Under the pieces are notes generated by a model. It searched no databases. It had not been told where the DNA came from and worked only from the letters and a program-made list of their open reading frames with translations. A stretch of 64,000 nt of DNA from Nitrosopumilus sp. (lineage in GTDB: Archaea > Thermoproteota > Nitrososphaeria > Nitrososphaerales > Nitrosopumilaceae). This document shows, piece after piece, positions 12,265-58,283 of the stretch (position 1 is its first letter; each line of letters begins with the position of its first letter). The position numbers were made by a program, and so were the translations under genes. Location: NCBI GenBank assembly GCA_965205425.1, contig CBDBGZ010000009.1, forward strand, positions 224,001-288,000. The letters are read 5' to 3'.

Positions 12265-12492
12265 TTACGAATTTCTACGTTTTATAACAAAAACAATAAC
12301 TATGGATATAGATAACAATATGCTAAAAAATACAAAAGATACAGAATTATATCTTATATCACATCTTTGTAAATCAGAGTTCCAATACAAAAAATCAATA
12401 TCACGATTGCAATCATAAACAAATTCTAGTTCTGCAAAAGCAGATTGATTGCATAGCACCAACAAACTGATACAAATTAAAATTTTTAACAA
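12265..12492 (-). CDS. Small partner protein (signal peptide, Cys pair, C-terminal TM)
   Basis: Hydrophobic termini; directly downstream of 12508-13452 after a T-rich spacer. Confidence 0.65.
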   Translation of the reverse strand: MLKILICISLLVLCNQSAFAELEFVYDCNRDIDFLYWNSDLQRCDIRYNSVSFVFFSILLSISIVIVFVIKRRNS

Positions 12493-12507
12493 AATAAAAA
12501 AGAAGGG

Positions 12508-13452
12508 TTAACCACTAACCGTTATTAATGATTCTAGGTGTGTAGTAGTACTTGCGGAACTGCCAGCATTAATGCCAGTAATTTTAGAATCTTGTGCACA
12601 AAAACCTGCAGTACTACCAGATAAGGAAGTGTCATAAGATTTTGAATAAGACCATGTTTCTTGACCTAAAACATTTTCCTGCTCAAAATCTACATCAAAA
12701 GCAAAGTTGACAGTACTATGTGCAACACTTTCATTCAAACAAATCTTTCCCAAATGTTCAGATAGAAAAGACAAAGGTACGAATGTGACATTAGCATATG
12801 ATATAGTATCACCACCCCAGACTATACTTTTTTCAGAACAGTATAGAGGAATAGGGAGGAATATCAAATCCTGAATACATGGATAAAAAATCTCAGATTG
12901 ATTTTTTAAACTTACATCATCTGTATGTATTTTGTATGTGTTTGATAACTTGTCAAGATAAGAGACTTTGTTTGTTTCGTTATCTTCAAGTTGTCTAGTT
13001 GCCTCTGTTACTCTATCAGACCAATATTCTTTATTTTGATCTAATCTATCTTTAGACACAACTCCTAAGAGTTCGAGGTCAAAGATTGCAGAATGTAGAA
13101 ATTTAGTTTCTTCAACAGTATTTTCACCAAGTGCTTTTGCTTTATGTAAAGCAAGTATTGTATCGCTTAAAACTTCAAGTCCATCATTTACAGCTTGATC
13201 ATATGGTGAAAGATTATCTCTTGATTCGATAAACTTTATCACATATTGCTGTTGTTGAGTAGAATTAAAATTTTGGAAATCATCAGATTGTTTGAGAACT
13301 TCCAAATAAACAGAATCTACATTACCAACTGGTCCTATATCATTTGTAAAGTCTTCTTCACCGGGTTCACCTTGAGCAAAAGTATCGCTCATTGCTACAG
13401 GAACAAACAAAATTAGCATCAAAAACGGTAGCGTATATTTTATGTTATTCAT
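12508..13452 (-). CDS. Secreted protein of the G[PS]VG-leader family
   Basis: Signal peptide then FAQGEPGEEDFTNDIGPVGNV, helical middle, Cys-containing beta-rich C-terminus. Confidence 0.8.
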   Translation of the reverse strand: MNNIKYTLPFLMLILFVPVAMSDTFAQGEPGEEDFTNDIGPVGNVDSVYLEVLKQSDDFQNFNSTQQQQYVIKFIESRDNLSPYDQAVNDGLEVLSDTILALHKAKALGENTVEETKFLHSAIFDLELLGVVSKDRLDQNKEYWSDRVTEATRQLEDNETNKVSYLDKLSNTYKIHTDDVSLKNQSEIFYPCIQDLIFLPIPLYCSEKSIVWGGDTISYANVTFVPLSFLSEHLGKICLNESVAHSTVNFAFDVDFEQENVLGQETWSYSKSYDTSLSGSTAGFCAQDSKITGINAGSSASTTTHLESLITVSG

Positions 13453-14200
13453 ATTATTGTGTCACTATCGAAATTATCAATATTTATACGGTACTATCAT
13501 TTCATGGATACAAAACAAGGCTCTAAATACCTAAAATTAATGCATGTCTGGGAGAATCCTGGAATGAAATTAAATTTAATTCTACGAATTGATTCGTTAT
13601 GATGAAAAGTTAATTTCATTTGAATAAATTTGAAATATGAGGGGGGACCAGTCCTGGAATGAAAAAATTATTTTATTTGCCATTAAAATTAATTTTGACG
13701 TGCAAGGAAAATGCAGAGTGAGATAAGGATGTAAAATATCAATTAATTTTAATCGTGGAATAGGTTTAATTTTAATTCTGGGATGAATTTATCTTTAATT
13801 TTAATCTTTGAATTAAAAGTTTGCAGATCTAAAGTATAGTTTTAAAGTATAGTTTTAAACTGTTATTCTAAACTGTGAATCTAGATTGGGGATGTGTTAA
13901 ATTGATGTTAAATTATTGTTGTTCAACTGAAATATTTGACTTTGATTAAAATTTAAAATGAAACTGAAATTAATCAATAATCAAATTAATTACGGTAGCA
14001 GAAAATTAAGATTAGAGAAAAAAAAGTAAACGGTTAAAGTTAATTGGACGGGAGCAGAAAAAATGAGGAATTTGCGGACTGTGATGAATTTCGGGTATGA
14101 TATTTTTGCGATCAACGATTAATTGATGTGTATGGATTTGATAGTTTTGTCTTGATTTGCTGTCTTTGGATTTAATTCTGTTTGATTGATTCAACAGTTC

Positions 14201-14391
14201 TTCTCTGTACTCTCTCTGCATCCTCTGTACTCTCTCTGCATCCTCTGTACTCTCTCTGCATCCTCTGTACTCTCTCTGTATCCTCTGTACTCTCTCTGTA
14301 TCCTCTGTACTCTCTCTGTATCCTCTGTACTCTCTCTGTATCCTCTGTACTCTCTCTGTACTCTCTCTGTATCCTCTGTACTCTCTCTGTA
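14201..14391. repeat. Tandem repeat, 20-bp unit TCCTCTGTACTCTCTCTGYA, about 9.5 copies
   Basis: Eight consecutive units, an 11-bp partial unit, one more unit; no spacers. Confidence 0.97.
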
Positions 14392-14460
14392 TTGTTGTAC
14401 GGTTTAGTCTTCTCTGGATAGTTTTGGTATTTGTTGTGTGTAAATGGTTATGAGGTATTA

Positions 14461-15006
14461 CTATTCATAGTATATCACTGCAACATCGACTCTTGGCTGG
14501 TTGTATGCCCTATGATTAATTGTTACTCCAAATTCATCTACATGTAAATGGGACTCTGCAGAGTCTGGTGCTGTGATGAGTAGTGTCGTACCATCATGAG
14601 ATATTGCTACTGAACCGTAATACATGTGGCGTGGGATAGAGCTGTATGTTATTCCAGCATACTCTGAATTGCATTGCTCAAGTGAGAATTCTACTGTGGT
14701 GCCAAGCTGAACCTGTACACTGCACGAATCAGTTGTAATTGATTCTAGTGTAAATATTGAATCTTGTGGAACTGTTATTTCAAAGGATGTCTCAGCAGAG
14801 TTGCCCGAGTCATCAGTTGCAATACAATAGATGGTGGTTTGTCCTGTATTGTGTATGTTAGATGGATTGCAACTCATTGATACGTCCTCATCTACACTAT
14901 CAGTTGCAGTGGGTTTGAGATAATCTATTGGAAATACCAGATTATTTCCTGAAATGATATCCTCAGATACGCCTGCAAATACCGGAGGGGTTGTATCTAC
15001 AACAAT
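14461..15006 (-). pseudogene. HYR-domain protein C-terminal fragment, truncated by IS110
   Basis: IVVDTTPPVF...ATDSVDEDVSMSC...ATDDSGNSAETSFEITV; 5' part missing. Confidence 0.8.
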
Positions 15007-15008
15007 TA

Positions 15009-16352: not shown

Positions 16353-16568
16353 TTACAATTTGTATACTAGAACAAACAATCCGAATCCAGGTAACACTAC
16401 AAATGTCATAATCGTGATAGGTATATCCATCCAACAATTACTTCTATCTGCATTTGGACTCCATGTTGGATACAAACAAGCATCAGTTGGATATTGCGCG
16501 TACAGTATGATAGATACAAAGAAAGACAAAAGTAAAAAAATAGTAGATAATATTAGAAATTTGCTCAT
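16353..16568 (-). CDS. Small two-TM partner protein with Cys pair
   Basis: Two hydrophobic helices around a C..C loop; follows the protease gene. Confidence 0.65.
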   Translation of the reverse strand: MSKFLILSTIFLLLSFFVSIILYAQYPTDACLYPTWSPNADRSNCWMDIPITIMTFVVLPGFGLFVLVYKL

Positions 16569-16593: not shown

Positions 16594-19500
16594 TTATTGG
16601 ATTCTCAAACTTTTTGCGATGTTAGGCCATGGACTGAATATTTTGAAAACCTCTATACAGTTACCATATGGATCTCTAACCTCGTAATGTATAGTATTGA
16701 CATCTATGACACAAGAACCGCCTGCTACAATGCCAAGCATAGTGGATGTACCATTTCCATGATTTATAATACTTTGTTTCCCAACCCCAAATAACCATCA
16801 ACACTCTTTGATGCTTTGAAATCATTTCTGATTCTATTGCATTGCAATCATTTTATTGTACAGACAAACTTTCATTTTCAATTCATGAATCATGTTTTCT
16901 CTCTTGTGCGATGTCACATGCTCTCCAAATATTCTTTTGAATACAGAGAATACTCCCTCTACAATCCATCTATCCCCATAGCTTACGCTGAGCTTCCATA
17001 GATCCAAGTTATACAATTGTGCCAAAACGGACTTTCTCCGAGGATAACAATCAGTTACAACTGATGAGTTTTTTCTTGTTTTAATTGCAGGTAGAATATC
17101 ATTATCATAATACAGATATGAAAAATTATCCTTTGTATCATATGCACCATCAGCCAAAGTTTTAGTGACATTGCCAAACTGTTTTGATTGCTCAACTAGC
17201 GATATGAAATGTTTTGAATCATGTGACTTGTCATCTGTAATATCAATCCCTGTGATCTGTTTAGATTTCACATCTACTGCCACATGAATTTTAAGAAATC
17301 CTCTTCTCTTCTGCCATTTCTGTCTCATCCACTCACCTCTGTTTGCAACCTTGATTCCAGTTGAGTCTATTGCAATGACAATGTCTTTTCCTAGTTTTGG
17401 ATTCATCTTGATGTCAAGTTTGTTGACACGTTTCCAAATGGCAGAATATGTGGGAGTCTTTGTTTTGGATTGGAGGTGTGATTTTATCAGACCTTCTGTT
17501 TGTCTGAATGGAAGATGCAAATAGAGATGACAGTATCCTAGTGCCTCCATGAAGGATTCAGGATAGACAAATCGATGACCTTCCTTTTTGTGATTCATCT
17601 CTTTTAGTTCCATACTCCATGATTCCATTGCGTCAAAGGACAACATGATTTCTCCACGTCTAACTAGTGTTTTGTTGTAATTTTTCCAGTTTCTGTTCAT
17701 GGAATAATACAGAATATTCTGATCTAAAGCTTGGGTGATGAAATTAATTGGATCAACTAGTCATGTTGGGAAACACAGCAATTTATAAAAATAGGCCCCC
17801 CACTATCTCCTTTTTGAGAAGGATATGTAGCTGATACTTGTTCAGTTAAGACATGTGTTTCTAATGACACAGTTACGTTGGTGTAAGAAATGTGACCGAT
17901 ACCATCATTATGTCTTGCAGATATTTCTACTTCTGTACCCCGACTAAAATCATCTAATCCGCCAAAATCAATCACCTGAATAGTTCCATTATTGGTTTGC
18001 AATTCATTTATTTTTGGTGTTATGTTGTCATTAGATATTTCGATCAATACTGCATCAGAATTTGTAGAACTACCCATACTTACATTTGAATCTGACAATA
18101 TTGTCGAACCTATTTCTGGTAGGATTAGGGACAAAGTATCTGTATCAAGACTTACTACTCTGTACAAGCTAGTTAGATGTATGTTATGTGATGCAGTTAA
18201 TAGTGCAGGTGTTCCAGTATAATTTAGAATCAACCCTGCTGTTCCTTGTGAACCTGTAATATGTAAAGGGTTATTTCCAAATATTCTGATGGCATCCCCT
18301 CCACGTAATTCATGTGTCTGTTCATCTTCCGGACATCCATAGTTGCCATCACCTGCCTCATCAGGGCACTGGTCTATCCCGTCATGGAACCCGTCACCGT
18401 CTGCAGGCCTGCCATCAGTTACGGTAATGGTAAATGATTCACTTGCCCTGTTTCCAGCAGCATCAGCTGCATTGCAACTCACTGTTGTTACCCCGATTTG
18501 GAAATAACCAGTACTGTGTGAACATGTAACATTTACAGTGCCATCTATACTATCAGTTGCAGTTACATCAAACTCTGCATAATACCCAAGAGAACTACGA
18601 GGAACTCCAGTAATGTCTGCGGGTATCACAATTACTGGAGGTGCTGTGTCTGCAGGTGTTATATCTTGATCATCATTTTCAACCTTTAGTATTATATTGT
18701 CAATTCCAAACTTGTTATCCTCATCTGCAATTTGTGCAGTTATTCTCATCTTAAATGAGGCAGTATCATCAAGTCTCAGCGTATGCTGTTGCCACAGACT
18801 ATCCCCGCTGGTCCATTTGAACTTTTCAGTCCATGCGCTTCCATCATAAACTTCAACTTTGAGCCAGTCATCACTTTCAAAGTCATCATCAATTAGTTTC
18901 CAAAATGTCAAAGTTATATGGTCATATCCTGATATGTCGATACCCTCACGCATTGTAATGGTACAAGGCTCACATTCATCATCATTTGTTGCAACATCAT
19001 TTGTAATAGTATGTCATGGAATCACCCCGTAATTAGAACCCAGGTCATCATCCTCAATGTCATCCCCGCTTGTATTCCAGTTTCTCATGTTGCTAAATTC
19101 CTCTAGAAATATTGTGTATGCTCCAAGGTCTGCCGGATTGATGCCATTGCCAATTAGTATATTGGCATAGGCTTTGCATACATTGATGAATCCTGGCAAT
19201 ACGTCAGGTGTGCAGTTTGCCTCATAGTATGTTTGGGCAGGTGATGAGGTTTCTGCAATAAACTCTGCATATACTATCTTAATTGGCGCACCAGTTTCCA
19301 AGGCATGCTGTATCTCATTTACATTGTATTTGATACCTGCCACTGCAGCCATCGGATGCATGCCTACGACAAGTATTTTTTCTTCCTCATCAACATATGT
19401 TATGGTAAACGGATAGTCATGCTCATAGCTTCCTGCAGAATGTCCCTCCATGATTCCCGTCAAATCTGAATGCGCCTTGTATAACTCGCTGACTATACCT

Positions 19501-19682
19501 ACAGGACCTACCGTACCATCATCAAAGAGGAAATCATCAGGTGTGGTGGTTGTAGCACTGGTGGCATTAAGATTATCATTGGCACTCTGGGCAAAAGATA
19601 TCATATCATTTTCAGCAGTCGCGATAACAATCATTGAAAATATCAAAACCGCAAACATTACAGTCTTTATTTTATTATTCAC
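16594..19682 (-). pseudogene. Secreted multidomain trypsin-like serine protease (G[PS]VG leader, beta-sandwich, HYR, TSP3-like repeat, S1 domain), disrupted
   Basis: In-frame TGA at 19014-16; IS at 16770-17780; removing the IS restores GDSGGPIFINHGNGTSTMLGIVAGG; LTASH and GDSGGP catalytic motifs. Confidence 0.88.
16770..17780 (-). mobile_element. IS5-family IS903-like element; transposase 16834-17700
   Basis: NWKNYNKTLVRRG, AIDSTGIKV, ADGAYD; imperfect 16-bp IR; 8-bp target duplication ATTTATAA (16762-69, 17781-88). Confidence 0.93.
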
Positions 19683-19736
19683 AATCACTTTAATACTACA
19701 CAAATTGATTCTATTTATAATTTGTATCCATGTGGT

Positions 19737-20700
19737 GGCCTTGTAGAAACCATGATAAAATAACAAAATCTAATTTTCTAATCCTGTAGGAATTGTATGC
19801 AATTAACCTGTACAACATCTCATTGTCCTGAGTTGTAACATTTCTTGATGTGACATCTCCTGACATTATCTGTTTGATCACAAAAAAGATTGTTTCAGAT
19901 TTGTTTCTCTGATGGTACAATTGTACAGGAAAGTTCCTCTTCATCTCCTTTCTGTGAATTCCGCTGGTTCTGTAAATTGGAACTGTTCCATATCGAGTTG
20001 GAATTATTGCAGCTGTGTTGATCTGTTCTGCACCGACATGGTTATTCTCATCATCAAAACCCATGTCACCTAACACAATATCAACTGGAACAATATTGTT
20101 GGTTTTGTACAACAATGGCAGAAAATCAGGATTATCATGTTGTGGTGTGTCATGACACAGCAAACAAGCTGTGTATTCATGTCAGCACAAACAACAACTT
20201 TTAGGAAATTCCTGCGTAACTGTACTCTTTTTGTATAATAGTATGATGCTGTACTGTAACTGAATCCGCTACCATCAATTCCAGCTAGAACCAGTCTGAC
20301 TTTTTTGTACAAAATGAATTCCTGCAACATTTTATGTAACAGATTTCCTTCCAGTCTTGCAGCTGCCTTTTGTAGTGTGGTGTAATGTGGAATGGTATAC
20401 AAACCAAGATATTCCTGAATTCCTACACATTCTTCTAAAAATTCTGTAAATCTTCTATAACTCTTTGATTCGTACTGTCGTATTGTCAAGAGTATGAGAT
20501 GTGTCCAAACAGAATAGATATGATTTGATTTTGGATGTAAGAACCTGGGAATTCTGCATCTGGTGATTATATTGAGTAGTGTTTTGCACATTTTGACGTA
20601 TGATGAGACCATACTGTAATCTGCAAATACAATCCTAATGGATCTAAATTAGCTAAAATGTATCACAATTGGGTTAAAATCAGATGGTTTCTACAAGGCC
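19737..20700 (-). mobile_element. IS5-family type B, copy 2, frameshifted
   Basis: Same TIRs as copy 1; a 7-bp deletion near 20140 splits the ORF. Confidence 0.93.
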
Positions 20701-20744: not shown

Positions 20745-21035
20745 TTAATCCATCAAACAAGGTAGATAGTAATGACCATTACTGGGCAGAGTCCAACATT
20801 GATCAAACATATCCTCATATATCACGTTTTCAGTTATGAGTATACCATGTTCGTCTTCAATTCTACAATTGGTTGGTGATTGTAAGAAGTGTTCGTCACA
20901 ACGTATGACATATTTTGCATCTTTTAGAAATTGTGGAGTATCTATGGAATCATAAAATGTAATTTGTATTAATGTAATAATTAATATAAAAAATAATACA
21001 ACTAAAACTATTACAAAGTTACGTTTTGATATCAT
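20745..21035 (-). CDS. Small membrane-anchored Cys-containing partner protein
   Basis: N-terminal TM, four Cys; 15 bp downstream of 21050. Confidence 0.7.
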   Translation of the reverse strand: MISKRNFVIVLVVLFFILIITLIQITFYDSIDTPQFLKDAKYVIRCDEHFLQSPTNCRIEDEHGILITENVIYEDMFDQCWTLPSNGHYYLPCLMD

Positions 21036-21049: not shown

Positions 21050-21868
21050 TTAGTTAGTATAGTGCCACAAAGCTGTATATACATCCCACCAAAAAGTAGG
21101 AGAATCATATGTGTCTAGCTCAGGATTTGGCTCATTTAGCTGTTGTAAAGTATGCCATCCATTACTAATTACACTGCCATAGTGATGAGTTGTAGTATTC
21201 GAATAGATAAAATTCTCATCTCTAAATTCTCCTTCATTACAACCACCAACCCCAGTTAGGTTTTTCTTCCCATAATCATAACCTACACTATCACGATCTG
21301 CCCAAGGATGTTGGATTTGATGATATCCGCTAGCAACAAGTGAATTTTGAATACTTTGTAGATCATCAAAACCATCCTTGTTTACAGTTTTGGAAGGATT
21401 AAGATGTGATGTTTGTCCATATGTTATGCCACAAGCATTAAGTGACCAAAACCAGACACTTGTTTGACCTGAAGCACCACCTTGTGGAGTAGTTGTTGTA
21501 GCATTTGTTAGCAAACTAAACTTGCCAGATTGTGCTTTTGTCATTACATTATCTATGTCAGTTTGATCACCAGTTTTTATCACCTCGGTAATCTTATTGT
21601 TTAGTTTTGCCCATTGTTTCATGATTTTGATGTCATCACGTGATACGCTATCTTTACGCATCTGTTTTTTATCAACAACCATGTTACCTTCAGAATCATA
21701 TGTGACATAACCTTTGGAATTTGTAAATGCCTTATCTATTTCAGCTAGTGTGTATGGTTCTTTTGCAGCTTCTGCTGATTGTATTCCTGATTCACTATTA
21801 AATGGTAGAATCATCACAGCAATCAAAGTAGCAAACAATATAGTCTGTAATTTTGTTACGTTTTTCAT
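21050..21868 (-). CDS. Secreted protein (TILFATLIAVMILPF leader), Thr/Gly linker, distinct C-terminal domain
   Basis: Signal peptide resembles that of 57357-58283; start taken at MKNVTK. Confidence 0.8.
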   Translation of the reverse strand: MKNVTKLQTILFATLIAVMILPFNSESGIQSAEAAKEPYTLAEIDKAFTNSKGYVTYDSEGNMVVDKKQMRKDSVSRDDIKIMKQWAKLNNKITEVIKTGDQTDIDNVMTKAQSGKFSLLTNATTTTPQGGASGQTSVWFWSLNACGITYGQTSHLNPSKTVNKDGFDDLQSIQNSLVASGYHQIQHPWADRDSVGYDYGKKNLTGVGGCNEGEFRDENFIYSNTTTHHYGSVISNGWHTLQQLNEPNPELDTYDSPTFWWDVYTALWHYTN

Positions 21869-22002
21869 ATCCTTATCAATAACGATTTTTGATGGCAATA
21901 AAAACGGTTCTGTGTAATCTAGGTGACCTGTTTTCTTCTGTGTAGTGGGGTGACCTGAGATTTTTTATGAATTGTTAGATGGGGGTGATAACCATAACCA
22001 TA

Positions 22003-23329: not shown

Positions 23330-23331
23330 TA

Positions 23332-38339: not shown

Positions 38340-38341
38340 TA

Positions 38342-39668: not shown

Positions 39669-39670
39669 TA

Positions 39671-45517: not shown

Positions 45518-46165
45518 TTATTGCAGATTAAAGCCTCGCTCTAACAGAGCCTCATATGTCTGCTCTTTGATACATACTGGAGTGTTATTGTCACGAATAT
45601 ACAACTCTAGTTCCCCATTACAGTGTATCTCATTTAATGATATGTTAAATTCACTCATCTGAATTGCAGGTGGTGGGTGTCTTTGCATGATTGTTTTTAT
45701 GACATTGTATTGGTGTTCTTCAAACGTTTTGATGTCTTTAAGAATACGATCATTCCAAGGATACTTTGCAATAATCGTAGAATCTCCTGATTGACCTGAA
45801 TAATATGCATATTTTGTGGTATTTCCACACCTATCAAAAGTAACTATCAATTGTGGACCTGAGTAATTTTTTATTGTAGGTAGTGTCCATGCATCAGTAT
45901 AAACACGAGCATAATTTGTAAATACTCCGAGATTGTCAAAGGAAACATCCTGATGTCTGTGTAGAAATTGTTTGACGACATAATCATTTTTCAATATAAT
46001 TTCTTCAGCAGTCCATGATATCCAAAATTCTTCTTCTGCACAAAATACATCGGCAAAACAAATGCCATTACGCGAATAAGGAAATTCTGACAACTCCTCA
46101 AGATATATGGCGCACCTCTCTTCAGAGTATTCTGCAAAAACTATAGCAGGTACAAAGAACAACAA
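45518..46165 (-). CDS. Secreted Cys-containing partner protein
   Basis: Leader ..PAIVFAE; PP..Q......IHC..ELELYIR..NTPVCIK..T...L.ERG tail; directly downstream of the protease. Confidence 0.7.
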   Translation of the reverse strand: MLFFVPAIVFAEYSEERCAIYLEELSEFPYSRNGICFADVFCAEEEFWISWTAEEIILKNDYVVKQFLHRHQDVSFDNLGVFTNYARVYTDAWTLPTIKNYSGPQLIVTFDRCGNTTKYAYYSGQSGDSTIIAKYPWNDRILKDIKTFEEHQYNVIKTIMQRHPPPAIQMSEFNISLNEIHCNGELELYIRDNNTPVCIKEQTYEALLERGFNLQ

Positions 46166-46191: not shown

Positions 46192-48597
46192 TCAGCGTGT
46201 AATACCTACTATTCCTAGATCAGATGCTATCGTATCATATGGTAGGTATACTGAATATCCATCACCATGAGTGGCACATGAAGCAGTTTGAGAATCAGCA
46301 TCACCTGGAATATCTCTAGCCTTGCCAACATGCATTCCATATAATTTAAAGCTAGAACTATACTGCCCAACAGGTACACTACTATCTCCTTTACACTCAT
46401 TATATGATGCATAAGTTCCCCGAGCATTATCTGTAGATATTATGTGTCCGCTAGTATAACCAGTAGCTGCTCCTGTTTGGTACACATAACTCCCTATACT
46501 TTGAGAATCAGTTGACTCGTAACTTGTAATGGAGTATGTCCTGTCACGCCAAAGCTTTACTGTTGCATCTACTGTCTTTCCAGTTGCAAGTTTGACAAAT
46601 GCAGTATCCTTAGTGCTATTATCCTTGTATGTCCCATAGTTGAGAGTGCCAATAACTGTTGCCTGCCATGATAAATCTGAAAGGCTTTGTCCTACTGGAA
46701 CAGTCGCTGAACCAACAATATTACCTGAATCAGGACCGGGTTGATACACTTTAGATTGGTATGTTGGAGCACCTGCAGTTATTGACAATAAATTACCAAA
46801 CGCATGTCCTACGGTAACAAACCCGTTATCACTTCCCTTTGTTGCAGGAAATGCAATTGTTGCATGACCACATAATATATTTTGGCTATGTGACTTGCGC
46901 TCCATTTCTGAACACATTAGATCAGACGCGCCTACACTAAGGGTAACGTGCTTGACTTCAATGTCGATGTTACCTGCAACATCCTCAAAGTTCTCTGATG
47001 CAATGGATTCTGTCGCATCTAAAACATTATTCTTGTGCAATTCAAAATCATTTGAGTGTATGATAACTTGTATTGATTCGTCTAAATGATCAACAAATAC
47101 ATCATTTAGTAGAGATGTATTGTTGTACTGTACGAGTATCTCTTGTTTGATATCAAGTAATTTCTGATGTCTTTTTTCTGGAATCTCAAAATGCTCATAT
47201 GTTTTATCCTGTAATATATCTAGTTCCACATACAATGCATCAATGGTATCTTTTACATTCTCTGTTTCATCTTTTGATTTTAGATCAGATAATGTTGCAT
47301 CAAGTTCAAAGATTCTTTCATAAAGGACTTTCATTTGAATCTCTAGATTCGCTATCTCTTGCTTTTTTGTATCTATTCTCAATTTGTGGGATTCTGCAGT
47401 ATGTTCCTCAACAACTCCTACAGATCCTGGGTGTGTCCTAAAACTATCCTCTAACATGTTTTGTAACCCCCATCAAATTAACAACTCGTATGTTGTAACA
47501 AATTACACGCAACGCCAACTCTTTTCTTTGAACCAACTTGTTTTTTGATGACAAGCTATTTCCAAAGATTCTTTTGAGTACTGCAAATACTGATTCAACA
47601 AGTGACCTCTTGTGATAATGTCTGTCAAATTCATCTTGATTGTCCTGGAATAATGTTATCATTTTTTTCCATGATGCAGAGCCTTTGGGATTTCTAACTG
47701 TGTTCTTCTTTGGTTTGATGTATGGTATCTTTTGCAGAGTAGCTACCATATTGCAAATGTCTCGTGACAAATATGCAGGATCTGCACAAAAATCACCAAT
47801 TCCCTTTGGAATGTCTTTGATTAATTTTTTGAGAATTGGTGCATCACCACGAGTTCCTTTAGTAATGTCAAAAGATACTATTGCCATGGACTGTATTGCA
47901 ATTAGGATGTGCAGTTTTAGATATAATTTCTTGGATTTGTGCGTGTTTGTCTTGATGTCAAACCAAGCCTCACATCTTTTGGTACCAAATCCTGAACTGT
48001 CAGGAGCTATGTCTTTTTTTTGATTGGTTCTGTGAGTTTTGCGTTTACCTTTTTCAAATAAGGCATTGGAATTCTTTTTAGACTGTCATTAATGACAGTC
48101 TTGCTTGGTGCTTTTTTGAGCTCCATTATTTCCAACAGAACCGGCCTTGATCTCAAGTGGGACTCCATGGAACGATAATCCAATCCAAACTTTACCTTTA
48201 GCATTGCACACATTATCTTTGCTTTTGTTGGAAATGCAGGACGCCCGCCTGTCTTTGGTTCCCATGGTGTATCCATACTCCAAACTGTCTTCTTTACTTT
48301 CTCCAAGAATAGAATCTCCTCATCCTTGCGATATGTGCCATATACTTGCCAGTCTCTTTTTGATTTGTTTTGCATAGTTGTTGTGATTCCATGCGATCAA
48401 TATGTTACAGAATTGAATAAAATTGTTATATTTGTCTACTTTTAGGACACACCCACAGATCCTATACCTGCAAGGTCCTCCCCTCCTGGCTCACTCTGGG
48501 CAAAAACATCACTCATTGTACCAAATGATAACATCATCATACCAATTATTCCGGCAAACAAGAAAGTCATTTTTTGATTATTTTTTGTATAATTCAT
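46192..48597 (-). pseudogene. Secreted trypsin-like serine protease of the G[PS]VG-leader family, interrupted by IS type F
   Basis: Removing 47429-48463 gives MNYTKNNQKMTFLFAGIIGMMMLSFG..AQSEPGGEDLAGIGSVGVVEEH..; GFVTVGH, DTAFV, GDSSVP. Confidence 0.88.
47429..48454 (-). mobile_element. IS5-like element type F, copy 2
   Basis: TIR GGGTGTGTCCTAAAA; 9-bp target duplication ACAGATCCT (47420-28, 48455-63). Confidence 0.95.
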
Positions 48598-48655
48598 GTT
48601 CTTGAATCCACTGCAAAATTAGTAGTATTTACACTGTACTATCGTTCCAGTAATA

Positions 48656-49697
48656 TGTTCTTTCCAGAAATTATTTCGTGTCACTTTCATGAGTAATTCC
48701 TCCATAGAATGCTTGGGTCTATGAGTATTTCGTTTGTTATCATCTTGGAGTGATACGCATCAGATGGTGTCTCCATGTTATCCAAGTCTAGTGCGCCATG
48801 AACTCTAATGTGATTGTACCAATGCATAAACTGCTCCACTGACTCAAAGTATTCTATTTTACACTCAAAGATATCCCAGAACTTTTCTAGCTTACCATTT
48901 GTTTGTGGATGTCTCACTCTTGTACGAGAGTGCTTTACGTGATGTCTCATTAGTTGCTGCTCAAAGTCTACTGGCTTGTTATGATCAAGAGTATTGACAT
49001 TTGATGTGAACTGTTTTCCATTATCAGATAGTACGGATGCTGGTCTACCGTGATTCTTTATTGCATCAGATAGTACTGCAGAAGAATTCACAGATGTTGC
49101 CTCATCATACACTCCGAAACCCGTGATAAATCGTGAGGCATCATCTTCAAATGCAATTAGTTGTTTTCCTGCCCAGCGTGAATCATGTATTGTGTGCCAG
49201 TCAGTATGCCACAGTGAATTTGAATATTCACGTTCATACCTGATCCACTTTCTTCTCATCTTTTTCCGTGGTTGCTCAACTGATAATCCTTCATCTAGCA
49301 TAATCTTGTGGATGCGATTGTGGTTTATCTTGGTATTGTACAATTTTGATATGATTTTCTCAAGGTATAGTGCGTTTGTATGAAATTTTTCTTGAACTTG
49401 TTTGACTAGCTCTATCTCGTGTACAGTGACTGGCTTTTTTGGACGCCCTGGTCTTTTGAGTGTGGGAATCTTTTTGGTTTTTTTGTACTGAGAGTAGACT
49501 TGTTGTACTCTTCTAGGCGTTATCTTGAGGATTACTGAAATATCTAAATTCTTGACTTTTTCATTTTTAGATTGTATAATCCACCTGATCTTATTCTCAT
49601 CTAACTTTACCATAGGTATGCCACGATACCCACGCATACGATAGTATGGGAATGATGCTCTCCTAGTTAAGGGGTGAAATAATTTCCGGAAAAGATA
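48656..49697 (-). mobile_element. IS481-family element; transposase 48687-49613
   Basis: LWHTDW, DDASR, SDNGKQF, HPQTNGKLE; imperfect IR; 15-bp duplication ATCGTTCCAGTAATA (48641-55, 49698-712). Confidence 0.95.
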
Positions 49698-49757
49698 ATC
49701 GTTCCAGTAATACATAACAACTTGAAATGGAACAATCCTGGAACAATACATGAAATA

Positions 49758-50840
49758 TACCTCGGAGCATAATTCTTTGCAATTTTTCAAAACAAATAGC
49801 AATACTTTTTGATCAGTAGTTAGAAATAATTTCATGGACATCACAAATGACGAGTTACTCCAGGCCTACAAAAAAGAAAAGTACGGTAAGAAAAAGGAAA
49901 GACTGCATGCAATGTGTATAATTAAGATCAACAAATCCACAATTGCTGAAACTGCAAGCCAAATGTTTTGTACATGCAATTCTGTAAGGAACTGGCTTGA
50001 TTCATTTGAAAAATACGGATTGGAGGACCCCCCCCCTCGTTCTGGTCGTCCGCCATTAATTTCACATAAAACATTACAAAAGATAGAGCAGGAATTTAAG
50101 AGAATTTCAGACGGCATGACTCCAAAAAAACTGATACAATTCATATTTTACAGAACACGCATTACATATCATATCACTCATGTGCGTCGTTTGATGCATA
50201 AATGGAATCTAAAACCAAAGGTTCCACAAAAGGTACATGTGCGAGCAGCATCCAAGGATACATGCCGCAAGTGGAAAAACCGCATCATTTCACGCATAGA
50301 AAAGGCAAAAAAGAAAGGTTTTACAGTATTTATCCAAGACGAGTCTGTATTTGTAGACGATGTACGTTTTGGTAAAAAATACTGGACAGATGCACACCAA
50401 AGATTAATTGTACGTTGGAGAGGATCGCACCAAAGATTTTTGGTTTATGGAAATGATGATAATCAAAGTTTTTTTAGATCGTATGAAAAATTTAATTCAA
50501 TTGCATTTATAGATTATTTGGAAGCAGCTCGTAGAAAATTTGGAAAAATATTTGTTATCGTCGATAGAGCACCGCAACACAAAGCTAATGATGTAAAAAA
50601 TATCTGCGTAAAAACAAAGCTGTCAAACTGGCATATCTTCCAAGAGGGTCTCCACATTTGAGTATGATTGAAGAGATTTGGAGACAGTGCAAACATGTTA
50701 ATGTTGAATCAGAATTTTATGAATCTATTCATGAGATGAGACATACAGTTATGGAATATTTTAGAACGCACAAATTTAATTTGAATATGTATCAGTATTT
50801 TGCAAGAACAATAAATTGAAAAGACTTATGATCTGAGGCA
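49758..50840 (+). mobile_element. IS630-family type D, frameshifted
   Basis: TA flanks; ORF shifts near 50600. Confidence 0.93.
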
Positions 50841-51791
50841 TACTATAGTTTTTGGGGACGATTCATTAAATTTTTTGTCAGCATATAGTTTCTTTATTTT
50901 ATTTCTTAATCTTCCGAAATTATTTTTTTGTAACAAATATTCAAAATCAGATTGTACAAAAATTTCTTCAATTTTAACACGTTTAGTTTTTGATAATTGA
51001 ATAGGTATTTTCTGAAAGTTTCTAAAAATTTGCTGTAATGATTTTTCATCTTCAGCTAATACAAATTGCAATAATTATTTAATATCATCATCATACTCAG
51101 ATTTTCTTCTTATCGTAGAACTCATTTCAATTGGATCAATAACTGTAAAACTTTTTGTTATTTTTGTTTCAATTTCTTTTGGGACTTGAATTAAATGAAA
51201 TTTGTCTTGTCTGTCTGGCTCTACAACTAATGTTGAAAATAGAATTAATCTAAGAGGAGGAGGTAAAATTGAAAATATGTTTTGTAAAAACATTAATTCA
51301 TCAGTTTTTAAAATGGCAATTTTTTTCCTTCTTAAAATTCCATAAAGGATTTCTTCAAGTAATTGCAAATCTTGTTTTTTAAGGAATTTAAAATCTGGTG
51401 AGAACGAGGAGATGTTAATATTAACAGGTTTTAATTCTCCACGCAAAGAATCATTTTTTATGAAATATTTTTCAAATATCCTAGAATCAAAATCAACCTC
51501 TTCAAACTCTTTTTCATCTATTACAAACGTGTGGTTGTATAGAGTACCTCGTCGTCCATCATAACCTATGCCTATATTTTTGACAATACTGTATGCAATT
51601 TTGTGATTTGGTAAAAACAACAAGGATCTTGATTCCTCAAATCCACTTATTTTAACACCTAATGGATAAAGATATTTTTCAAGTTTTGATATTATTTCAT
51701 CTGTAATTCCTACACTTTTTGCAATTATTTGATAGCCTTCATTATTTCCTATTTTACCTGCAGTGTAAATGAAATGATCACATGTGGGCAT
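50841..51791 (-). pseudogene. GAP1-N2-like (GTPase-associated) protein with in-frame TAA and IS truncation
   Basis: FIYTAG....EGYQIIAKS.GI..DGRRGTLYNHTFV; TAA at 51075-77 is in frame with 50826-51071. Confidence 0.65.
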
Positions 51792-51796
51792 AGGGT

Positions 51797-52675
51797 TTAC
51801 CCTAGTAGATTTTCATGCAACCACCAAAGAAACTCTGTGTATACAGGATGGCTGTATGATAATGGTTTTGCAACTTTTAGTCCTTCTGTAGAATCAACTT
51901 CATTCTCTCGGTTTCTTTGTACATCAACATGAACCATAAAATATTCTCTCTCTCCGTCATGAATATCTTCAAGTGTATTGTAAAATCTTCGCATATACTG
52001 TTTAACTAAATCTTTAGCAGACACATTTCTATCTTCTAAACTGTCTGCTTTTGTAAGTACTATTGCTATCGGGGTATTGATTCTTTCATTTTTTGAAGTG
52101 TTAGTTGATTTTTTAAAATCTTGTATGGTTGTTAATACTTGACTGTATTGAGTTTGATCTTTTTCCCAATCAGTTTTCATTTTTGAACAATCAAGTAAAA
52201 ACACATATATTTTTGCATATACTGCATATATCATTTCACTATAAGGTTGACCTTTAACTATCCCCATCTGACAAACTTTTACAACTCGTTCATTTCCTCT
52301 TATTTCTTCACCTAAACACATGTTTTTGTAATCTTCACCAGAAATATCTGGAAGTTTAAATTCCATACTACTAGCAGTTGCACCAGTTCCTCTCATTTCA
52401 AAAACAATTTTGTCTCTTGACAATTGTTGGGTTCTTTCTGGAAATTCACCATCTCTTAAACTATTTTCACATGATTCAAGAAATGGTCTTCCATCTTTAG
52501 GATGTGCGCGTAGTTCTGGGCGGTCATCTAGAAAATGGTTATCAATAGCATGGCTTAGTAATGTAATGAATACTGTTTTTCCAGTTCCACTCGGACCCAA
52601 AACTGCCACATTATTTTCATTTTGAATAGCATCAGACGCCTTTAAAATAGGCGTCATCTTTTCTTGTATACTCAT
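51797..52675 (-). CDS. TRAFAC-class GTPase (double-GTPase-like)
   Basis: GPSGTGKT, FPERT, DISGE, LTKAD. Confidence 0.85.
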   Translation of the reverse strand: MSIQEKMTPILKASDAIQNENNVAVLGPSGTGKTVFITLLSHAIDNHFLDDRPELRAHPKDGRPFLESCENSLRDGEFPERTQQLSRDKIVFEMRGTGATASSMEFKLPDISGEDYKNMCLGEEIRGNERVVKVCQMGIVKGQPYSEMIYAVYAKIYVFLLDCSKMKTDWEKDQTQYSQVLTTIQDFKKSTNTSKNERINTPIAIVLTKADSLEDRNVSAKDLVKQYMRRFYNTLEDIHDGEREYFMVHVDVQRNRENEVDSTEGLKVAKPLSYSHPVYTEFLWWLHENLLG

Positions 52676-54822
52676 TATTCACTATTACCTTCCATGCTGT
52701 TTATCTCACTTTCGGTTTGGATAATTTTTTCATAATTTAATATGTAAAAGCTACAAGTGCCATTTTTGCCTAGTTTTGGATCAGATAGTCCTATACAAGC
52801 TCTGGCTGTACCCACTGTTTTATGATCTTCTTCGGGAAAACACTGTTGTTCATAATCTAAAAATTTGTCAATATGTTTCACAATTATATCATCCACATAT
52901 CCTATGGAATTGTAACCTAGAGCAATTACGTCATCTACAAATTTCTGAATTGTTAGATGAGTAGATTGTTCTCTTGTTGGGAATCTCCAACCAAAATAAG
53001 CCTCTAGTTTTTCTGAAGTTGTTTGCCAATCTTTGTAAGGAAAATGAGGCAGGTGAGCAATAGTTACAAAGACTTCTTTTTTGATAGTGTATTTTTTAAT
53101 AGTTTCATCTTTTACTAGAGCATCAACTCTATTTCTAATCATTTGTTCAGAAATATCACCCCCATTAAGTCTGAAAACTATTTCTTTCAATGGTTGTCTA
53201 CCTCCACGAACTAATCTTAAAATTAATTGCTCTATTACATGTCTTCTAAGTTTTTCAAGTATTGGTGCAACTATGCCAGTTTGTTCTGCAAGAAGAGACA
53301 TTTGATCAAAAATTGGTACTGTTAACTCACGCATAGGATTCATTTTTTCTTGATGTATAATTTCTCGCCATACTTCATCCCAATCAAATTTACCATGTTC
53401 AAATTCTCTAGGTTGATTTAACGATCCTTGAGATAATTTTGCCATGTCTTGAATATCTCCTTCTCTGCTAGCTACTGCCTTTAGCAAAAAGACATATTCA
53501 TTTCTCAATACACCAACTTTTAATTTTCCATATTCAGTATAATCTGCAGTTTCAATCATAACATCAGATAACGATAAATCTTTCATCACTCTTTTTGTAA
53601 ATAGATCAATTCTACTTCTATCTGGATGAATCAATATTTCATCTGGATATAGGCGTAAATCCTCTTGAGAATATTCCGTTTCAATTATTTTTTCATATCC
53701 TAAATGTTCAGTAAGGGCTTTACACAAGATTTTAAAATCTGATGATTTTTCAACGATTACATCACAGTCTTTAGTAACTGCCTTTAGATTTTTTAATCGC
53801 ATATTTTCTCCACCCATAAGAAATATGCTCATAGGATGATCTATGTTATTTCCAATATCTTCAAACAGTGAAGGGGTTGGTGTTGGAACAATATATTTTT
53901 CTGAATCTACCTCATATAGTTCTGCTTTTGAGATAAATTCACTCCATGGCAAAAACATGCTTTCATTTTTTAATTTTTGTTGTCTAATGTATGCTTCAAC
54001 ATCTAGCCATATGGATGATATATCAAATGATGTTGCAATTTCTCTTAACCGTTTAGTATCTATTTTGTTTTTATTATTAACATAAAACACTATGGATATG
54101 ATCAATCCCATTTTGTCCTTGTCTTTGTAAGATGTCAATATCGAATGAATGATAATATCATGAATATTTAGTGGGTTTTTTTGTTTTACATAATAATCAT
54201 ATGGGGATTCATACGGGATTCCATGATTTGGAAATACTGAAAAAGATGTTAACTCACCTTCAGTTATTTTTCCCTTGGGTACTTTCTTTAGGGTTTTTTC
54301 TGGATCTATGTAAATTACTTCTGCATCAGGTTCATACATTTTTTCTCTTTCAGTTTTTAGTATTTTTGCAAAATCTATCAAATCTGTTTTAGAAGGATCT
54401 ATGTGTATTCTCTCTGGAACTTTCCCCCAATGAAATCCTTGTGTGTCTATTTCTTTTTGTATGACCCCTATTGCTCCAAGATCAGATATTGCTCGATATA
54501 TTGTGGCAGTTGATAATCCAGTATTTGCTAGAATTTCGTTAACCGTTAGTGATTCAGTCAAATATGAAAATACAAGTTCATTAGAGTCTCGTAAAAGATT
54601 CTCTAAATTCCATGATTGAGATATTTTTTTTAGCAGTATTGTTTTTGCATTTTCTTGTAGTTCTATGATATTACCTTCTTTTTTGATAAAACCATCTCGA
54701 AGTAATTTTTTTGTCTGTTCATTGAACTGCCATTCTTTGACTCCACTGATCTCTCTTAATGTGGCAACATCATGGGTATCATTGATTATTGCCTTTACAA
54801 TTGATATGGATGTGTTATTCAT
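52675..54822 (-). CDS. Winged-HTH plus DUF6036-like nucleotidyltransferase fusion (715 aa)
   Basis: TVNEILANTGLSTATIYRAISDL HTH; LMGG.NM....K..TKDCDVIV, RIDLF, LLKAVASREGDIQD. Confidence 0.8.
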   Translation of the reverse strand: MNNTSISIVKAIINDTHDVATLREISGVKEWQFNEQTKKLLRDGFIKKEGNIIELQENAKTILLKKISQSWNLENLLRDSNELVFSYLTESLTVNEILANTGLSTATIYRAISDLGAIGVIQKEIDTQGFHWGKVPERIHIDPSKTDLIDFAKILKTEREKMYEPDAEVIYIDPEKTLKKVPKGKITEGELTSFSVFPNHGIPYESPYDYYVKQKNPLNIHDIIIHSILTSYKDKDKMGLIISIVFYVNNKNKIDTKRLREIATSFDISSIWLDVEAYIRQQKLKNESMFLPWSEFISKAELYEVDSEKYIVPTPTPSLFEDIGNNIDHPMSIFLMGGENMRLKNLKAVTKDCDVIVEKSSDFKILCKALTEHLGYEKIIETEYSQEDLRLYPDEILIHPDRSRIDLFTKRVMKDLSLSDVMIETADYTEYGKLKVGVLRNEYVFLLKAVASREGDIQDMAKLSQGSLNQPREFEHGKFDWDEVWREIIHQEKMNPMRELTVPIFDQMSLLAEQTGIVAPILEKLRRHVIEQLILRLVRGGRQPLKEIVFRLNGGDISEQMIRNRVDALVKDETIKKYTIKKEVFVTIAHLPHFPYKDWQTTSEKLEAYFGWRFPTREQSTHLTIQKFVDDVIALGYNSIGYVDDIIVKHIDKFLDYEQQCFPEEDHKTVGTARACIGLSDPKLGKNGTCSFYILNYEKIIQTESEINSMEGNSE

Positions 54823-56245: not shown

Positions 56246-56320
56246 GAACTGTAAAGAGAATGCTTTGCTGTTAGGAAATGACTGAGAGTTATTTTTGTAA
56301 ATAATTATGCCCAAGTCTTA
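56246..56320 (+). mobile_element. Right-end fragment of IS type A
   Basis: Matches 29701-29775. Confidence 0.88.
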
Positions 56321-57017
56321 GATATTTAGAGCCTGCAGTGAGAAAAACAGTTCCTATTCCTGCAAAACTATACTCTGATTCTAAAAAAATAAATGATGTA
56401 CAGCAACTCCAACTGTTCTTTCCAGAATTGATTGCAATGACTGATGGTACTGAACAACCAATCCCAAGACCCCAGAACAAAAAGAAAAGAAAGACTCACT
56501 ATTCAGGCAAAAAGAAAAAACACACAATAAAAAACCAAATCACCATAAACCAGAAAGGTGAGATAATCCACAAACCCCCACATTCTCCAGGTAAAAAACA
56601 TGATTATGCCATACTGAAAATAAAGTATCCTACACTACACGAAGATGTGATGATATTTTATGACCTTGGGTATTTGGGAGTGGAAAAAGATTTTCCAGAA
56701 CAGACAAGCATTCTACGATACAAGAAAAAGAAAGGAAAAGAGTTAACCATTTCTCAGAAAAAGTGGAACAAGACACAATCAAGAATCCGAATAAAAGTAG
56801 AACATATTATCTCTCAAATCAAAAAGTTTAGGATTAATTCTGAGACATTTAGGAATAGATTGTGCAGATATGATGCAATAAGTGACATCGTATGTGGAAT
56901 TGTGAATTTCAAGACAAGATGGAAGCAAGAGTTTGTTGTGATTCCATAAGATTAGAAATTATTTGAAATTAAATTCAAGGAAAGATAAGATTTTGATTGT
57001 AATTACGCAAGAGGTCT
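56321..57017 (+). mobile_element. IS5-family ISL2-like (DDE_Tnp_4) element, 5'-truncated; ORF 56338-56949
   Basis: DGTEQPIPRP, YSGKKKKHTIK, YDLGYLG, RIKVEH; right end approximate. Confidence 0.85.
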
Positions 57018-57033
57018 ATTGTTCCATAATAAT

Positions 57034-57291
57034 TTAGGGATGGAATTTACCTAATCGCCTTGATTTTTTAATTAATTTACCAATAAAATATACAATAGGC
57101 CACCAGAATAATATGTTGGAGATGACGATCAATCCAGAATAAATAAACCAACTATGTGGAAATGTCTGTTCATAGTAAAAAAATGGTGCAGATAATGTTG
57201 CCCATATTAAATTTGCGCCAAAATTTGAAAATAATATAATTTGAGATTCAATTCCTGTATGAAATAAAATACCTAGACTATAATTTACCAT
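57034..57291 (-). CDS. Small membrane partner protein
   Basis: Hydrophobic helices; downstream of 57357 after a T-rich spacer; start uncertain. Confidence 0.65.
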   Translation of the reverse strand: MVNYSLGILFHTGIESQIILFSNFGANLIWATLSAPFFYYEQTFPHSWFIYSGLIVISNILFWWPIVYFIGKLIKKSRRLGKFHP

Positions 57292-57356
57292 TCCATATGC
57301 AAGTGGTATTAGATATACTAATTTTGATTTTTTAATGTTAAAAAAAGAGAAAAAGT

Positions 57357-58283
57357 CTAAGATATTGACACCTTAGATAATCCAGGATTGGTATCAATTA
57401 TATCCATCATGTGATTCCAAGTATTACTTACATAGATTGTTTGACCAGGTGTGTATGTTTTAGTTATTGTTCCATGACAGCCAGGTGCATTAATGGAACC
57501 AATAAAACATCCATAATCATTAGATGCACTCCAAGTGTTGTCAAATTCTATTTGATTATTGTTCTTGATGGTAAATATTTCTATATCATATATTCTGTCA
57601 TATAATTCCATTCTAAGGCCATCATACAAATCATCAATTAATGGATGATCTTCATCTGTAAAATATAACACAAATGTTCGTTCACAAGTGCTAGAATTAT
57701 CATAGTATGTGTGACCATACATGTTATTATCACCTTCAAATGTGTATAACCAGAACGCACCGCCATCAATGTCTAGACGTAGTTGTTTGTATGTTGGATT
57801 TGTAGTACTTGAACATGCGGCACTTGCACTAGGAATTCCAAACCAATCTAGAAAACTAACATCTATCCTATCTGCATAATCTGACTCTTGTAATATTTTT
57901 AATCTCTCGTCTTTTATTGTTTCATCAAAGATATAATTTTTTACAGCTGCAACCTCTACATCAGTCAGGTTTCTAGTTTCTGAATCCACACGGGCTTGTT
58001 CAATTACTAGTCCAAAGAACTCGTCATATTCTGCCTTGATTTCATTAGATTTTGCTTGAAAATCTTTTGTATCTGCATCATCTATTAATTCTCGAATATC
58101 CTCTTTGAACTCTTGTTTTGTTAGTTCATCAACAACTCCAACTGGTCCTACCTCATCTGTAGAATCCTCACCTGGTCCATTTTGAGCATCTGCAAAATCC
58201 ATCATACTAAACGGCAGAATCATCATACCAATTATTCCAGCAAACAAGAAAGTCATTTTTTGATTATTTTTTGTATAATTCAT
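57357..58283 (-). CDS. Secreted protein of the G[PS]VG-leader family with NPP1-like C-terminal motif
   Basis: AQNGPGEDSTDEVGPVGVV; DEDHP..D.LYD..R...Y.RIYDIE..IYVSNTWNHMM; NPP1 resemblance is weak. Confidence 0.8.
   Translation of the reverse strand: MNYTKNNQKMTFLFAGIIGMMILPFSMMDFADAQNGPGEDSTDEVGPVGVVDELTKQEFKEDIRELIDDADTKDFQAKSNEIKAEYDEFFGLVIEQARVDSETRNLTDVEVAAVKNYIFDETIKDERLKILQESDYADRIDVSFLDWFGIPSASAACSSTTNPTYKQLRLDIDGGAFWLYTFEGDNNMYGHTYYDNSSTCERTFVLYFTDEDHPLIDDLYDGLRMELYDRIYDIEIFTIKNNNQIEFDNTWSASNDYGCFIGSINAPGCHGTITKTYTPGQTIYVSNTWNHMMDIIDTNPGLSKVSIS

Follow-up and report, generated by a model that had tools for sequence, protein, structure and literature searches.

Exported-protein genes with adjacent partner genes behind a shared promoter-leader module in Nitrosopumilus: five candidate effector-partner cassettes

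Alpha-lytic protease/streptogrisin-type S1 proteases are made as pre-pro-enzymes with a pro region, and the staphopain-staphostatin systems consist of a secreted protease and its co-operonic cognate inhibitor. The use of one leader for many bodies is known from prochlorosin precursors with Nif11-type leaders and from the YSIRK and KxYKxGKxW signal peptides. Polymorphic toxin-immunity systems (CdiA-CT/CdiI, Rhs, LXG and similar) are reportedly described by Zhang et al. 2012. Here, we compare with these systems a stretch of 64,000 nucleotides (nt) of the Nitrosopumilus sp. contig CBDBGZ010000009.1 (hereafter the window, with coordinates counted from its position 1), in which five genes, A to E, are each followed by a small partner gene, pA to pE. 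The original prediction for this DNA saw in these genes the polymorphic toxin-immunity layout, and part of that view survives: the partners are type-specific and two related loci form a mosaic, but the leader is generic, no known toxin, immunity or trafficking domain was found in effectors or partners (Pfam, NCBIfam), and the conserved motif is dispensable for the pairing. Our own reading is that the window contains five two-gene cassettes, each composed of an exported effector or enzyme and its cognate partner and mounted on a recombining export module; we favour it tentatively, as a reading that could well be right and could somewhat more easily be wrong.

Four of the genes (A, B, C and D) have the predicted order of signal peptide, 'AQ', acidic spacer and G[PS]VGxV, as was confirmed by a motif scan and blastp. 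A six-frame scan of the window gave 12 matches to G[PSTA]VG, five of which lie 37-65 residues past the starts of these genes, the motif of C being matched on both sides of its insertion sequence (IS), and all five follow a hydrophobic leader, 'AQ' and an acidic spacer. Similarity among A-D ends after about 55-70 residues, both by blastp (A-D, 40% over 57 amino acids (aa); C-D, 63% over 46 aa; B-D, 34% over 68 aa) and by profile-profile comparison of D with the A, C and E families, which aligns the leader only (D with A at residues 1-73, with C at 2-34 and with E at 3-34). The fifth gene, E, had been said to share the leader style; it has the signal peptide and no GPVG. A small membrane or secreted gene does follow each of the five, 14-65 nt downstream, and the partners are usually Cys-containing as expected (four of the five, pD being without Cys).

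All five genes and their partners are on the minus strand. Gene A (12508-13452; 314 aa, intact) carries a signal-peptide variant (..LPFLMLILFVPVAMSDTFAQ), an acidic spacer, GPVGNV with its first G codon at 13335, a helical region and a Cys-containing C-terminus, and its partner pA (12265-12492; 75 aa) has an N-terminal signal/anchor, four Cys, a C-terminal hydrophobic segment and a KRRNS tail. Gene B is in two pieces: the 5' piece (17781-19682) comprises a leader with a long spacer, GPVGIV at 19517, a HYR domain and the S1 domain through GDSGGP, and the 3' piece (16594-16769), placed by alignment with S1 members, contains the last S1-domain strands and the stop codon at 16594-16596; pB (16353-16568; 71 aa) has two hydrophobic segments around a loop with two Cys. 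Gene C is also split, into a 5' piece (48455-48597) that runs from the leader to the first bases of the GSVG codons and a 3' piece (46192-47428) with GSVGVV, a coiled-coil/helical region and a predicted alpha-lytic-type S1 protease domain, and pC (45518-46165; 215 aa) has a short hydrophobic N-terminus, six Cys and a C-terminal WING-49 domain (residues 166-212). Gene D (57357-58283; 308 aa, intact) has a leader with GPVGVV at 58148 and both DEDHP and NTWNHMMD in its beta domain, its upstream region (58284-58343) contains a TATA-like box, and pD (57034-57291; 85 aa) is hydrophobic. Gene E (21050-21868; 272 aa, intact) joins the signal peptide to a family with a conserved C-terminal EPNPE...WW..WH, and pE (20745-21035; 96 aa) consists of an N-terminal membrane anchor and a domain with four Cys. 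The gene-partner spacers measure 15 (A), 25 (B), 26 (C), 65 (D) and 14 nt (E), that of B being counted from its true end at 16594, with pyrimidine fractions of 0.93, 0.64, 0.92, 0.57 and 0.79, respectively; the spacer of A contains T6, that of C T7 runs and that of E a T8 run.

The distribution of the leader bears directly on how these cassettes are to be read. A leader profile built from seven leaders of the window and related loci gave 120 matches at E<=1e-3 among 1.84 billion representative proteins. In 110 of them, a near-invariant signal peptide (KTILFASLIAAMILPFS..A.A; stereotyped consensus K-T-I-L-F-A-S/G-L-I-A-A-M-I-L-P-F-S..A.A) stands before unrelated proteins of many lengths; seven have a second variant (..IPLLALILLIPVGMSDTFAQ), as on gene A, and three are internal in long proteins and probably false. 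The GPVG-type extension is present on only 12 of the 120. Signal peptides normally drift, and conservation this strong is rare. No published description of this signal peptide was found in the literature as far as it was accessible to a search for 'MILPFS' and to broader searches, and the passages of PMC3387779 available to us contain nothing on the leader. Most of the 'constant N-terminus' is the standard export signal of this lineage, and because this genus-typical signal peptide heads more than 100 unrelated protein clusters, a constant N-terminus with a variable C-terminus is not in itself a polymorphic-toxin signature; the main premise of a toxin-immunity reading is weakened by this. The features of a Sec signal peptide can be read directly from the sequences (a K-rich n-region, an h-region ILFA..MILPF and a ..A.A c-region), and cleavage at A-x-A is predicted. 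Class III (type IV pilin-like) archaeal signals have [KR]-[GA] immediately ahead of a hydrophobic segment of ~20 residues, which the mature protein retains; none of these features was found in the leader, which has K-T before a short h-region that is followed by A-x-A and a charged region. The carriers of the stereotyped signal peptide are proteins P0058-P0170 and, in the window, E, the 5' piece of C, and D, at the positions given above.

The promoter appears to travel with this leader. Genes C and D of the window are near-identical over ~55 nt upstream, including the TATA-like box, and over the first 20 codons. Measured over the upstream 60 nt plus the n-region, leader-DNA identity within a genome is 0.96 for these two non-homologous genes (58284-58343 versus 48598-48657), 0.72 for a C-type and a D-type gene of OZ253567 and 0.73 for a D-type and an S1-type gene of OZ242186, whereas orthologues in different genomes are only 0.50-0.59 identical over the same stretch. 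Because of this difference, and because both signal-peptide variants occur within the D family (P0024 versus P0001-5), we conclude that the module of promoter, 5' untranslated region (UTR) and leader evolves in concert across unrelated genes within a genome, as seen in three genomes.

The GPVG extension occurs on at least seven body types (D, three kinds of S1 protease, A, P0049/P0051 and P0052). The spacer before GPVGxV is variable in sequence and in length, from about 12 to about 30 residues, and the motif is fixed while its codons change synonymously (GGA/GGT, CCA/CCT, GTT/GTA), which points to selection on the peptide itself. The motif may be a processing or sorting signal, as originally proposed, and it is this conservation of amino acids over synonymous changes that suggests it. 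The model of D shows disorder at residues 1-46 and a fold from residue 53 onwards, which would place GPVG in a flexible N-terminal tail of the mature protein. Among 48 D-family matches, G[PS]VG occurs in five and GPLG in one, these six all belonging to the closest relatives, whereas in the remaining 42 the signal peptide passes into the first helix without the motif. At two related loci (L001, 6845-7780, and L002, 6033-6690, both on the minus strand), a GPVG-bearing P0052-like gene is divergent from a D gene; a one-base frameshift lies in its signal-peptide codons and its open reading frame (ORF) starts within the leader, the same start being annotated in P0052 of another assembly. An 'orphan cassette' reading of this P0052-type gene was rejected, since a frameshifted full signal peptide is present upstream.

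The anatomy of the pairs is real and extends beyond the window. A genome scan with patterns from the LFAGIIGM signal variant only (five sequences) reduced 197 pattern matches to 11 loci (L001-L011), of which L011 is a false positive, and the informative relatives are all from Nitrosopumilus-type archaeal assemblies. Orthologues of C occur at L003 (70% identity) and L010 (49%; without GPVG, with the partner kept), and both are followed by a pC homologue (61% identity, E 1e-88, and 40%, E 7e-43, respectively); the C type therefore keeps a pC-family partner in 3/3 loci (the window and 2/2 others), an adjacency that persists across 40-49% protein divergence. Behind the D-type genes of L001, L002 and L006 lie hydrophobic ORFs 98-105 aa long, and a hidden Markov model (HMM) of these three ranks pD first among the 593 ORFs of the window (E 8e-5; next best 0.13), a weak but specific relation by which the D type has a pD-like partner in 4/4 loci (the window and 3/3 others). 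For the L007-type S1 protease, the partner is common to L007 and L010 (E 9e-13), not L008 (2/3 loci). Together, partner family tracks effector family, independent of GPVG, and the prediction that partner type follows C-terminal type thus holds at the level of families; for sequence identity within the D family it does not, as discussed below. A further locus, L004 (CBDBIW010000011.1), is a 22-kb contig that is filed in a bacterial (Cyclobacteriaceae) bin and looks mis-binned; it contains the same archaeal genes and copies of the window's IS, and its GPVG-leader gene is near-identical to that of L005 until the C-terminal ends diverge.

Within pC, residues 166-212 match WING-49 (NCBIfam NF058652; E 7.7e-13, 48.4 bits versus a cut-off of 22). 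A literature search by name found no paper naming WING-49, and membership is therefore uninformative on function. The mini-domain (HCN.GLELY.R...PVC.K..TYE.L.ERGF; pC copy at 45530-45670 of the window) recurs in other exported proteins of related genomes, at L008 (about 1570-1710, 9968-10105 and 11409-11549), L007 (13685-13801) and L002 (15901-16017), and twice in P0175. The pC model (pLDDT 71.5) has no match at E<=0.001 among solved structures (best E 0.1), and a cystatin-like row (E 0.45, probability 0.15) was rejected as non-significant. When the C-type protease (412 aa, 3-row alignment) and pC (residues 12-215, 9-row alignment) were co-folded without controls, ipSAE was 0.00 and 0.01 against a mark of 0.32, values that speak neither for binding nor against it.

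The C-termini of the four GPVG-type genes are as originally described, with S1 His/Asp/Ser motifs in B and C, DEDHP/NTWNH in D and a Cys-containing end without a family match in A. The TxGH and GDSxxP columns are invariant in seven aligned S1-type sequences, the Gly-Asp-Ser context being kept, and the Asp of D(S/T)AFV is present in the C type and P0050. A profile of the S1 family matched sequences of solved structures that include alpha-lytic protease, Lysobacter lytic endopeptidase, streptogrisin B and glutamyl endopeptidase (E 3.5e-4 to 6e-3; 5mrr at 3.5e-4 and alpha-lytic protease at 7e-4 to 6e-3); C as a single sequence gave no match to solved structures, and the S1-type bodies have no Pfam match, including trypsin, even at E<=10. 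Judged by these motifs and profile matches, B and C are alpha-lytic-type S1 proteases, both disrupted in the window. The model of D (pLDDT 77.2) comprises a helical domain (residues 53-147) and a beta domain (about 160-308) and matched nothing at E<=0.001 in solved structures or viral models; the D family profile found nothing below E 0.12 among solved-structure sequences, tblastn of D against phage genomes gave no match, and an NLP row of the structure search was rejected as low-ranking and non-significant. The C-domain of D has a sub-threshold match to Lsa23 (a Leptospira adhesin model; 31.6 bits versus a cut-off of 270). Protein Atlas placed this domain with unnamed clusters at 0.90 and with one containing PF06101 (20% of members) at 0.84, and E at 0.84 at best; neither result was used. 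A and E have no Pfam or NCBIfam match, and the relatives of A are P0055 and P0072 (38% identity).

Two of the five genes are interrupted. An IS of 1026 bp (47429-48454; inverted ends, 9-bp target duplication), 99.6% identical to the copy at 25020-26046, is inserted inside the GSVG codons of C. In B, an IS of ~1 kb (about 16770-17780, limits read by eye from the junctions; transposase ORF at 16834-17700) has imperfect terminal inverted repeats and an 8-bp target duplication and breaks the protease domain just past GDSGGP, its last 58 codons resuming at 16769 and ending at 16594; because the IS splits B, pB directly follows the gene only once the IS is read out. B also has an in-frame TGA at 19014-19016, and selenocysteine or readthrough at this codon was set aside in favour of a plain pseudogene, which is simpler as the gene also carries an IS. 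From these insertions and the TGA, it follows that the pairs A, D and E are intact and that B and C are recent pseudogenes.

A run of at least five T residues occurs <=30 nt past the stop codon in 4/5 effector genes versus 13/74 ORFs of >=100 aa (Fisher p=0.007). Oligo-T tracts terminate archaeal transcription, and spacers of 14-26 nt would leave no room for a separate promoter. Because of these tracts and short spacers, we infer that synthesis of the partners probably depends on transcriptional read-through and stays below that of the effectors.

Our data suggest a model whereby the N-terminus common to these proteins is an exchangeable 5' module for expression and export rather than a toxin-delivery domain. 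The module would consist of an archaeal promoter, a short 5' UTR and the stereotyped signal peptide, would be extended in one clade by a disordered acidic segment (AQ..PGEED..GPVGxV) that opens the mature protein, and would be copied between non-homologous genes of a genome by recombination or gene conversion. The signal peptide would drive Sec export and be cut at A-x-A, and the acidic GPVG segment, selected at the level of the peptide, may serve at the N-terminus as a short linker or propeptide that is perhaps clipped at GPVG. Thereafter the body would act outside the cell, as an alpha-lytic-type serine protease in B and C and as a family-less domain in A, D and E, while the partner, produced from transcripts that cross the oligo-T tract, would stay at the membrane and bind or restrain its own exoprotein, for self-protection or tethering. 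Several points weigh against this model. Strong termination at the oligo-T tracts would argue against co-expression of the partners, and GPVG, being dispensable in 42/48 D-family matches, may have no function of its own. The C-terminal domains of D, A and E have no activity assignable by Pfam, NCBIfam or structure searches, the pC model is without a significant solved-structure match, and two of the four GPVG genes of the window are dead, which means that the set is not under strong selection in this genome.

Of the other explanations, the one that survives best is a true archaeal polymorphic effector-immunity (bacteriocin-like) system, in which the exported bodies would be weapons against neighbouring archaea or bacteria, the partners immunity proteins, and GPVGxV either a processing site or the junction at which variable bodies recombine onto the leader. 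We consider it unlikely, though far from negligible, and the comparison of D loci speaks on both sides. L001 and L002 are two D loci in one chromosome. Between ~140 nt before the start and D residue ~175 they agree at 100%; identity falls to 47-67% (nt) over the beta domain of D and to 37-48% over the N-terminal two-thirds of the partner, but it is again 100% in the last ~22 codons of the partner and onward, with 99.7% over the next 2.4 kb. This mosaic looks like the footprint of a replaced effector-tip/partner cassette, as would be expected of swapped effector/immunity cassettes, and it is because of this mosaic and the type-specific partner immediately downstream that the toxin-immunity reading keeps some weight. 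The partners also evolve much faster than the effectors (25-49% versus 57-86% C-domain identity in six D-locus pairs). Within these six pairs, however, partner identity does not follow the identity of the C-domains, and L002 and L006, whose C-domains are the most alike (86%), share no more than 27% identity in their partners. Also in favour of this explanation, the motif sits precisely where the constant region gives way to the variable one, and bacteriolytic Lysobacter enzymes, whose lytic role we take as given, are among the nearest solved relatives of the proteases. Against it, the constant part is the generic signal peptide that more than 100 unrelated families carry, alignment between types is confined to the leader with no long trafficking or presentation domain, and the searches of Pfam and NCBIfam named no toxin or immunity domain. 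The bodies are ordinary group-wide families with the same partner with or without GPVG, and no orphan C-terminal cassettes were seen among the downstream ORFs of nine loci, in a search that was not systematic.

It is rather unlikely that the pairs have no functional link, that is, that unrelated exported proteins merely carry the standard signal peptide, with GPVG as a neutral passenger of gene conversion and the partners as ordinary neighbours. The signal peptide is indeed ubiquitous, GPVG is limited to a few closely related genomes and missing from most orthologues, within-genome homogenisation of 5' ends would spread any linked sequence, and the window is saturated with IS copies and has two dead genes. 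A neutral passenger would not, however, be expected to keep GPVGxV invariant despite variation of the spacer and of synonymous codons. Also against this reading, C-type effector and partner stay adjacent across 40-49% protein divergence, and the layout of an effector followed by a small membrane or secreted gene is found in 5/5 window cassettes. A bolder reading, which we regard as improbable, is that an undescribed N-terminal export/sorting code, made of the near-invariant signal peptide of more than 100 families and a clade-specific acidic GPVGxV processing tag, is mounted by the recombining promoter-leader module on interchangeable effector-partner cassettes, at least some of which (the D type, whose C-domain/partner segment is hypervariable, and the alpha-lytic-type proteases) would be archaeal weapons with immunity proteins and hence a Sec-dependent analogue of polymorphic toxins. 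Very improbable, finally, is a dedicated sorting signal (the signal peptide with or without GPVG) that a specialised peptidase or an enzyme for anchoring would read, in a new system mirroring the archaeosortase/PGF-CTERM type at the N-terminus, with the partners as docking or assembly factors that hold enzymes on the cell surface, since the unusual near-identity of the signal peptide across more than 100 unrelated clusters, the peptide-level selection on the motif and the membrane-anchored or secreted nature of all five partners, which favour it, are set against a short h-region (~14 residues) followed by A-x-A that fits ordinary signal peptidase I, a high DNA identity of the signal-peptide codons that could come from gene conversion alone, and the fact that no candidate processing enzyme was identified.

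The cassettes lie in an AT-rich window (guanine-cytosine content 0.30-0.39) with a very high IS load. Self-comparison found 28 repeats of >=150 bp, many of them 94-100% identical, Pfam named DDE transposases in 5/29 submitted ORFs, and housekeeping genes (a pyrophosphatase, an FMN reductase and a glycerate kinase-like gene) are scattered among the IS copies. The IS belong to several families (DDE_3, DDE_Tnp_1 and IS110-like), many copies again being 94-100% identical, with examples at 8450-9897, 19736-20700, 21988-23378, 25020-26046, 31432-32538, 38327-40818, 47429-50843 and 58572-61907; some are nested or truncated, and two are those that disrupt B and C. At 10749-12179, immediately upstream of cassette A, a DUF5131 protein (E 1.5e-86) adjoins a protein with a sub-threshold match to a GMT-like winged helix-turn-helix (wHTH) (E 2.6e-4). 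A 138-aa ORF (14461-14877) that matches HYR in part and has 67% identical relatives in L003 and L008 is closely preceded, in minus-strand sense, by a 20-bp tandem repeat (14203-14391; 9.4 copies, 97% match). A three-gene module on the minus strand (51075-54822) codes for a protein of 715 aa whose matches to wHTH and nucleotidyltransferase-like families are weak, for a Double-GTPase (DO-GTPase1, E 5e-13) and for a GAP1-N2 protein (E 2.5e-6), and is like the GTPase-centred conflict systems of Pfam annotations. Two Ser/Thr-rich ORFs of 404 and 118 aa (36721-38416, minus strand), for which no family match was found, border an IS110-like copy (38343-39434), and the start of the 404-aa ORF repeats an ORF (21919-22077) beside the other copy of the same element.

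Marine ammonia-oxidising archaea are among the most abundant cells of the ocean, and to our knowledge almost nothing is known of their exports or of their interactions with neighbours. If our reading is correct, the stereotyped signal peptide would offer a simple sequence handle for listing exported proteins of these archaea, and the module would be an example of a promoter plus leader kept uniform across unrelated genes of a genome. The pairs, including archaeal alpha-lytic-type proteases and the hypervariable D/partner segment, would form a small effector/partner set testable for antagonism, self-protection and surface tethering. Should they turn out to be ordinary exoenzymes with anchors, the result would be a useful annotation and no new kind of system.

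Compared with polymorphic toxin-immunity systems, the cassettes are alike in that a shared N-terminus precedes a variable C-terminal part, that a small gene specific to the type comes directly afterwards, that a short conserved motif marks the constant/variable junction and that L001 and L002 differ only in effector C-domain and partner. They are unlike them in that the shared part spans only ~55 residues and is mainly generic signal peptide, with neither a trafficking or repeat domain nor a known toxin or immunity domain, in that the bodies belong to conserved orthologous families also found without the motif, and in that the non-systematic look at nine loci found no orphan cassettes in the downstream ORFs. 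With alpha-lytic/streptogrisin-type S1 proteases, the predicted proteases share the His/Asp/Ser motifs, the profile matches and a signal peptide plus a long N-terminal extension before the catalytic domain; the matches are nevertheless weak (best E 3.5e-4, with no Pfam trypsin match at E<=10), the extension is coiled-coil-like and its relation to the alpha-lytic pro region is unsupported, and these archaeal genes have a conserved downstream partner. The staphopain-staphostatin systems similarly have a small cognate gene directly after the gene for a secreted protease, conserved together with it, whereas the partners described here have signal or anchor segments, which would place them outside the cytoplasm, and no inhibitor fold was recognised in the pC model. 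In carrying one stereotyped N-terminal leader on many unrelated sequences of a lineage, the cassettes resemble the Nif11, YSIRK and KxYKxGKxW families. The bodies here are full-size proteins rather than the peptides of prochlorosin-type families, we know of no dedicated processing enzyme for the stereotyped leader of Nitrosopumilus-type archaea, and the shared module here takes in the promoter, which is homogenised together with the leader within each genome.

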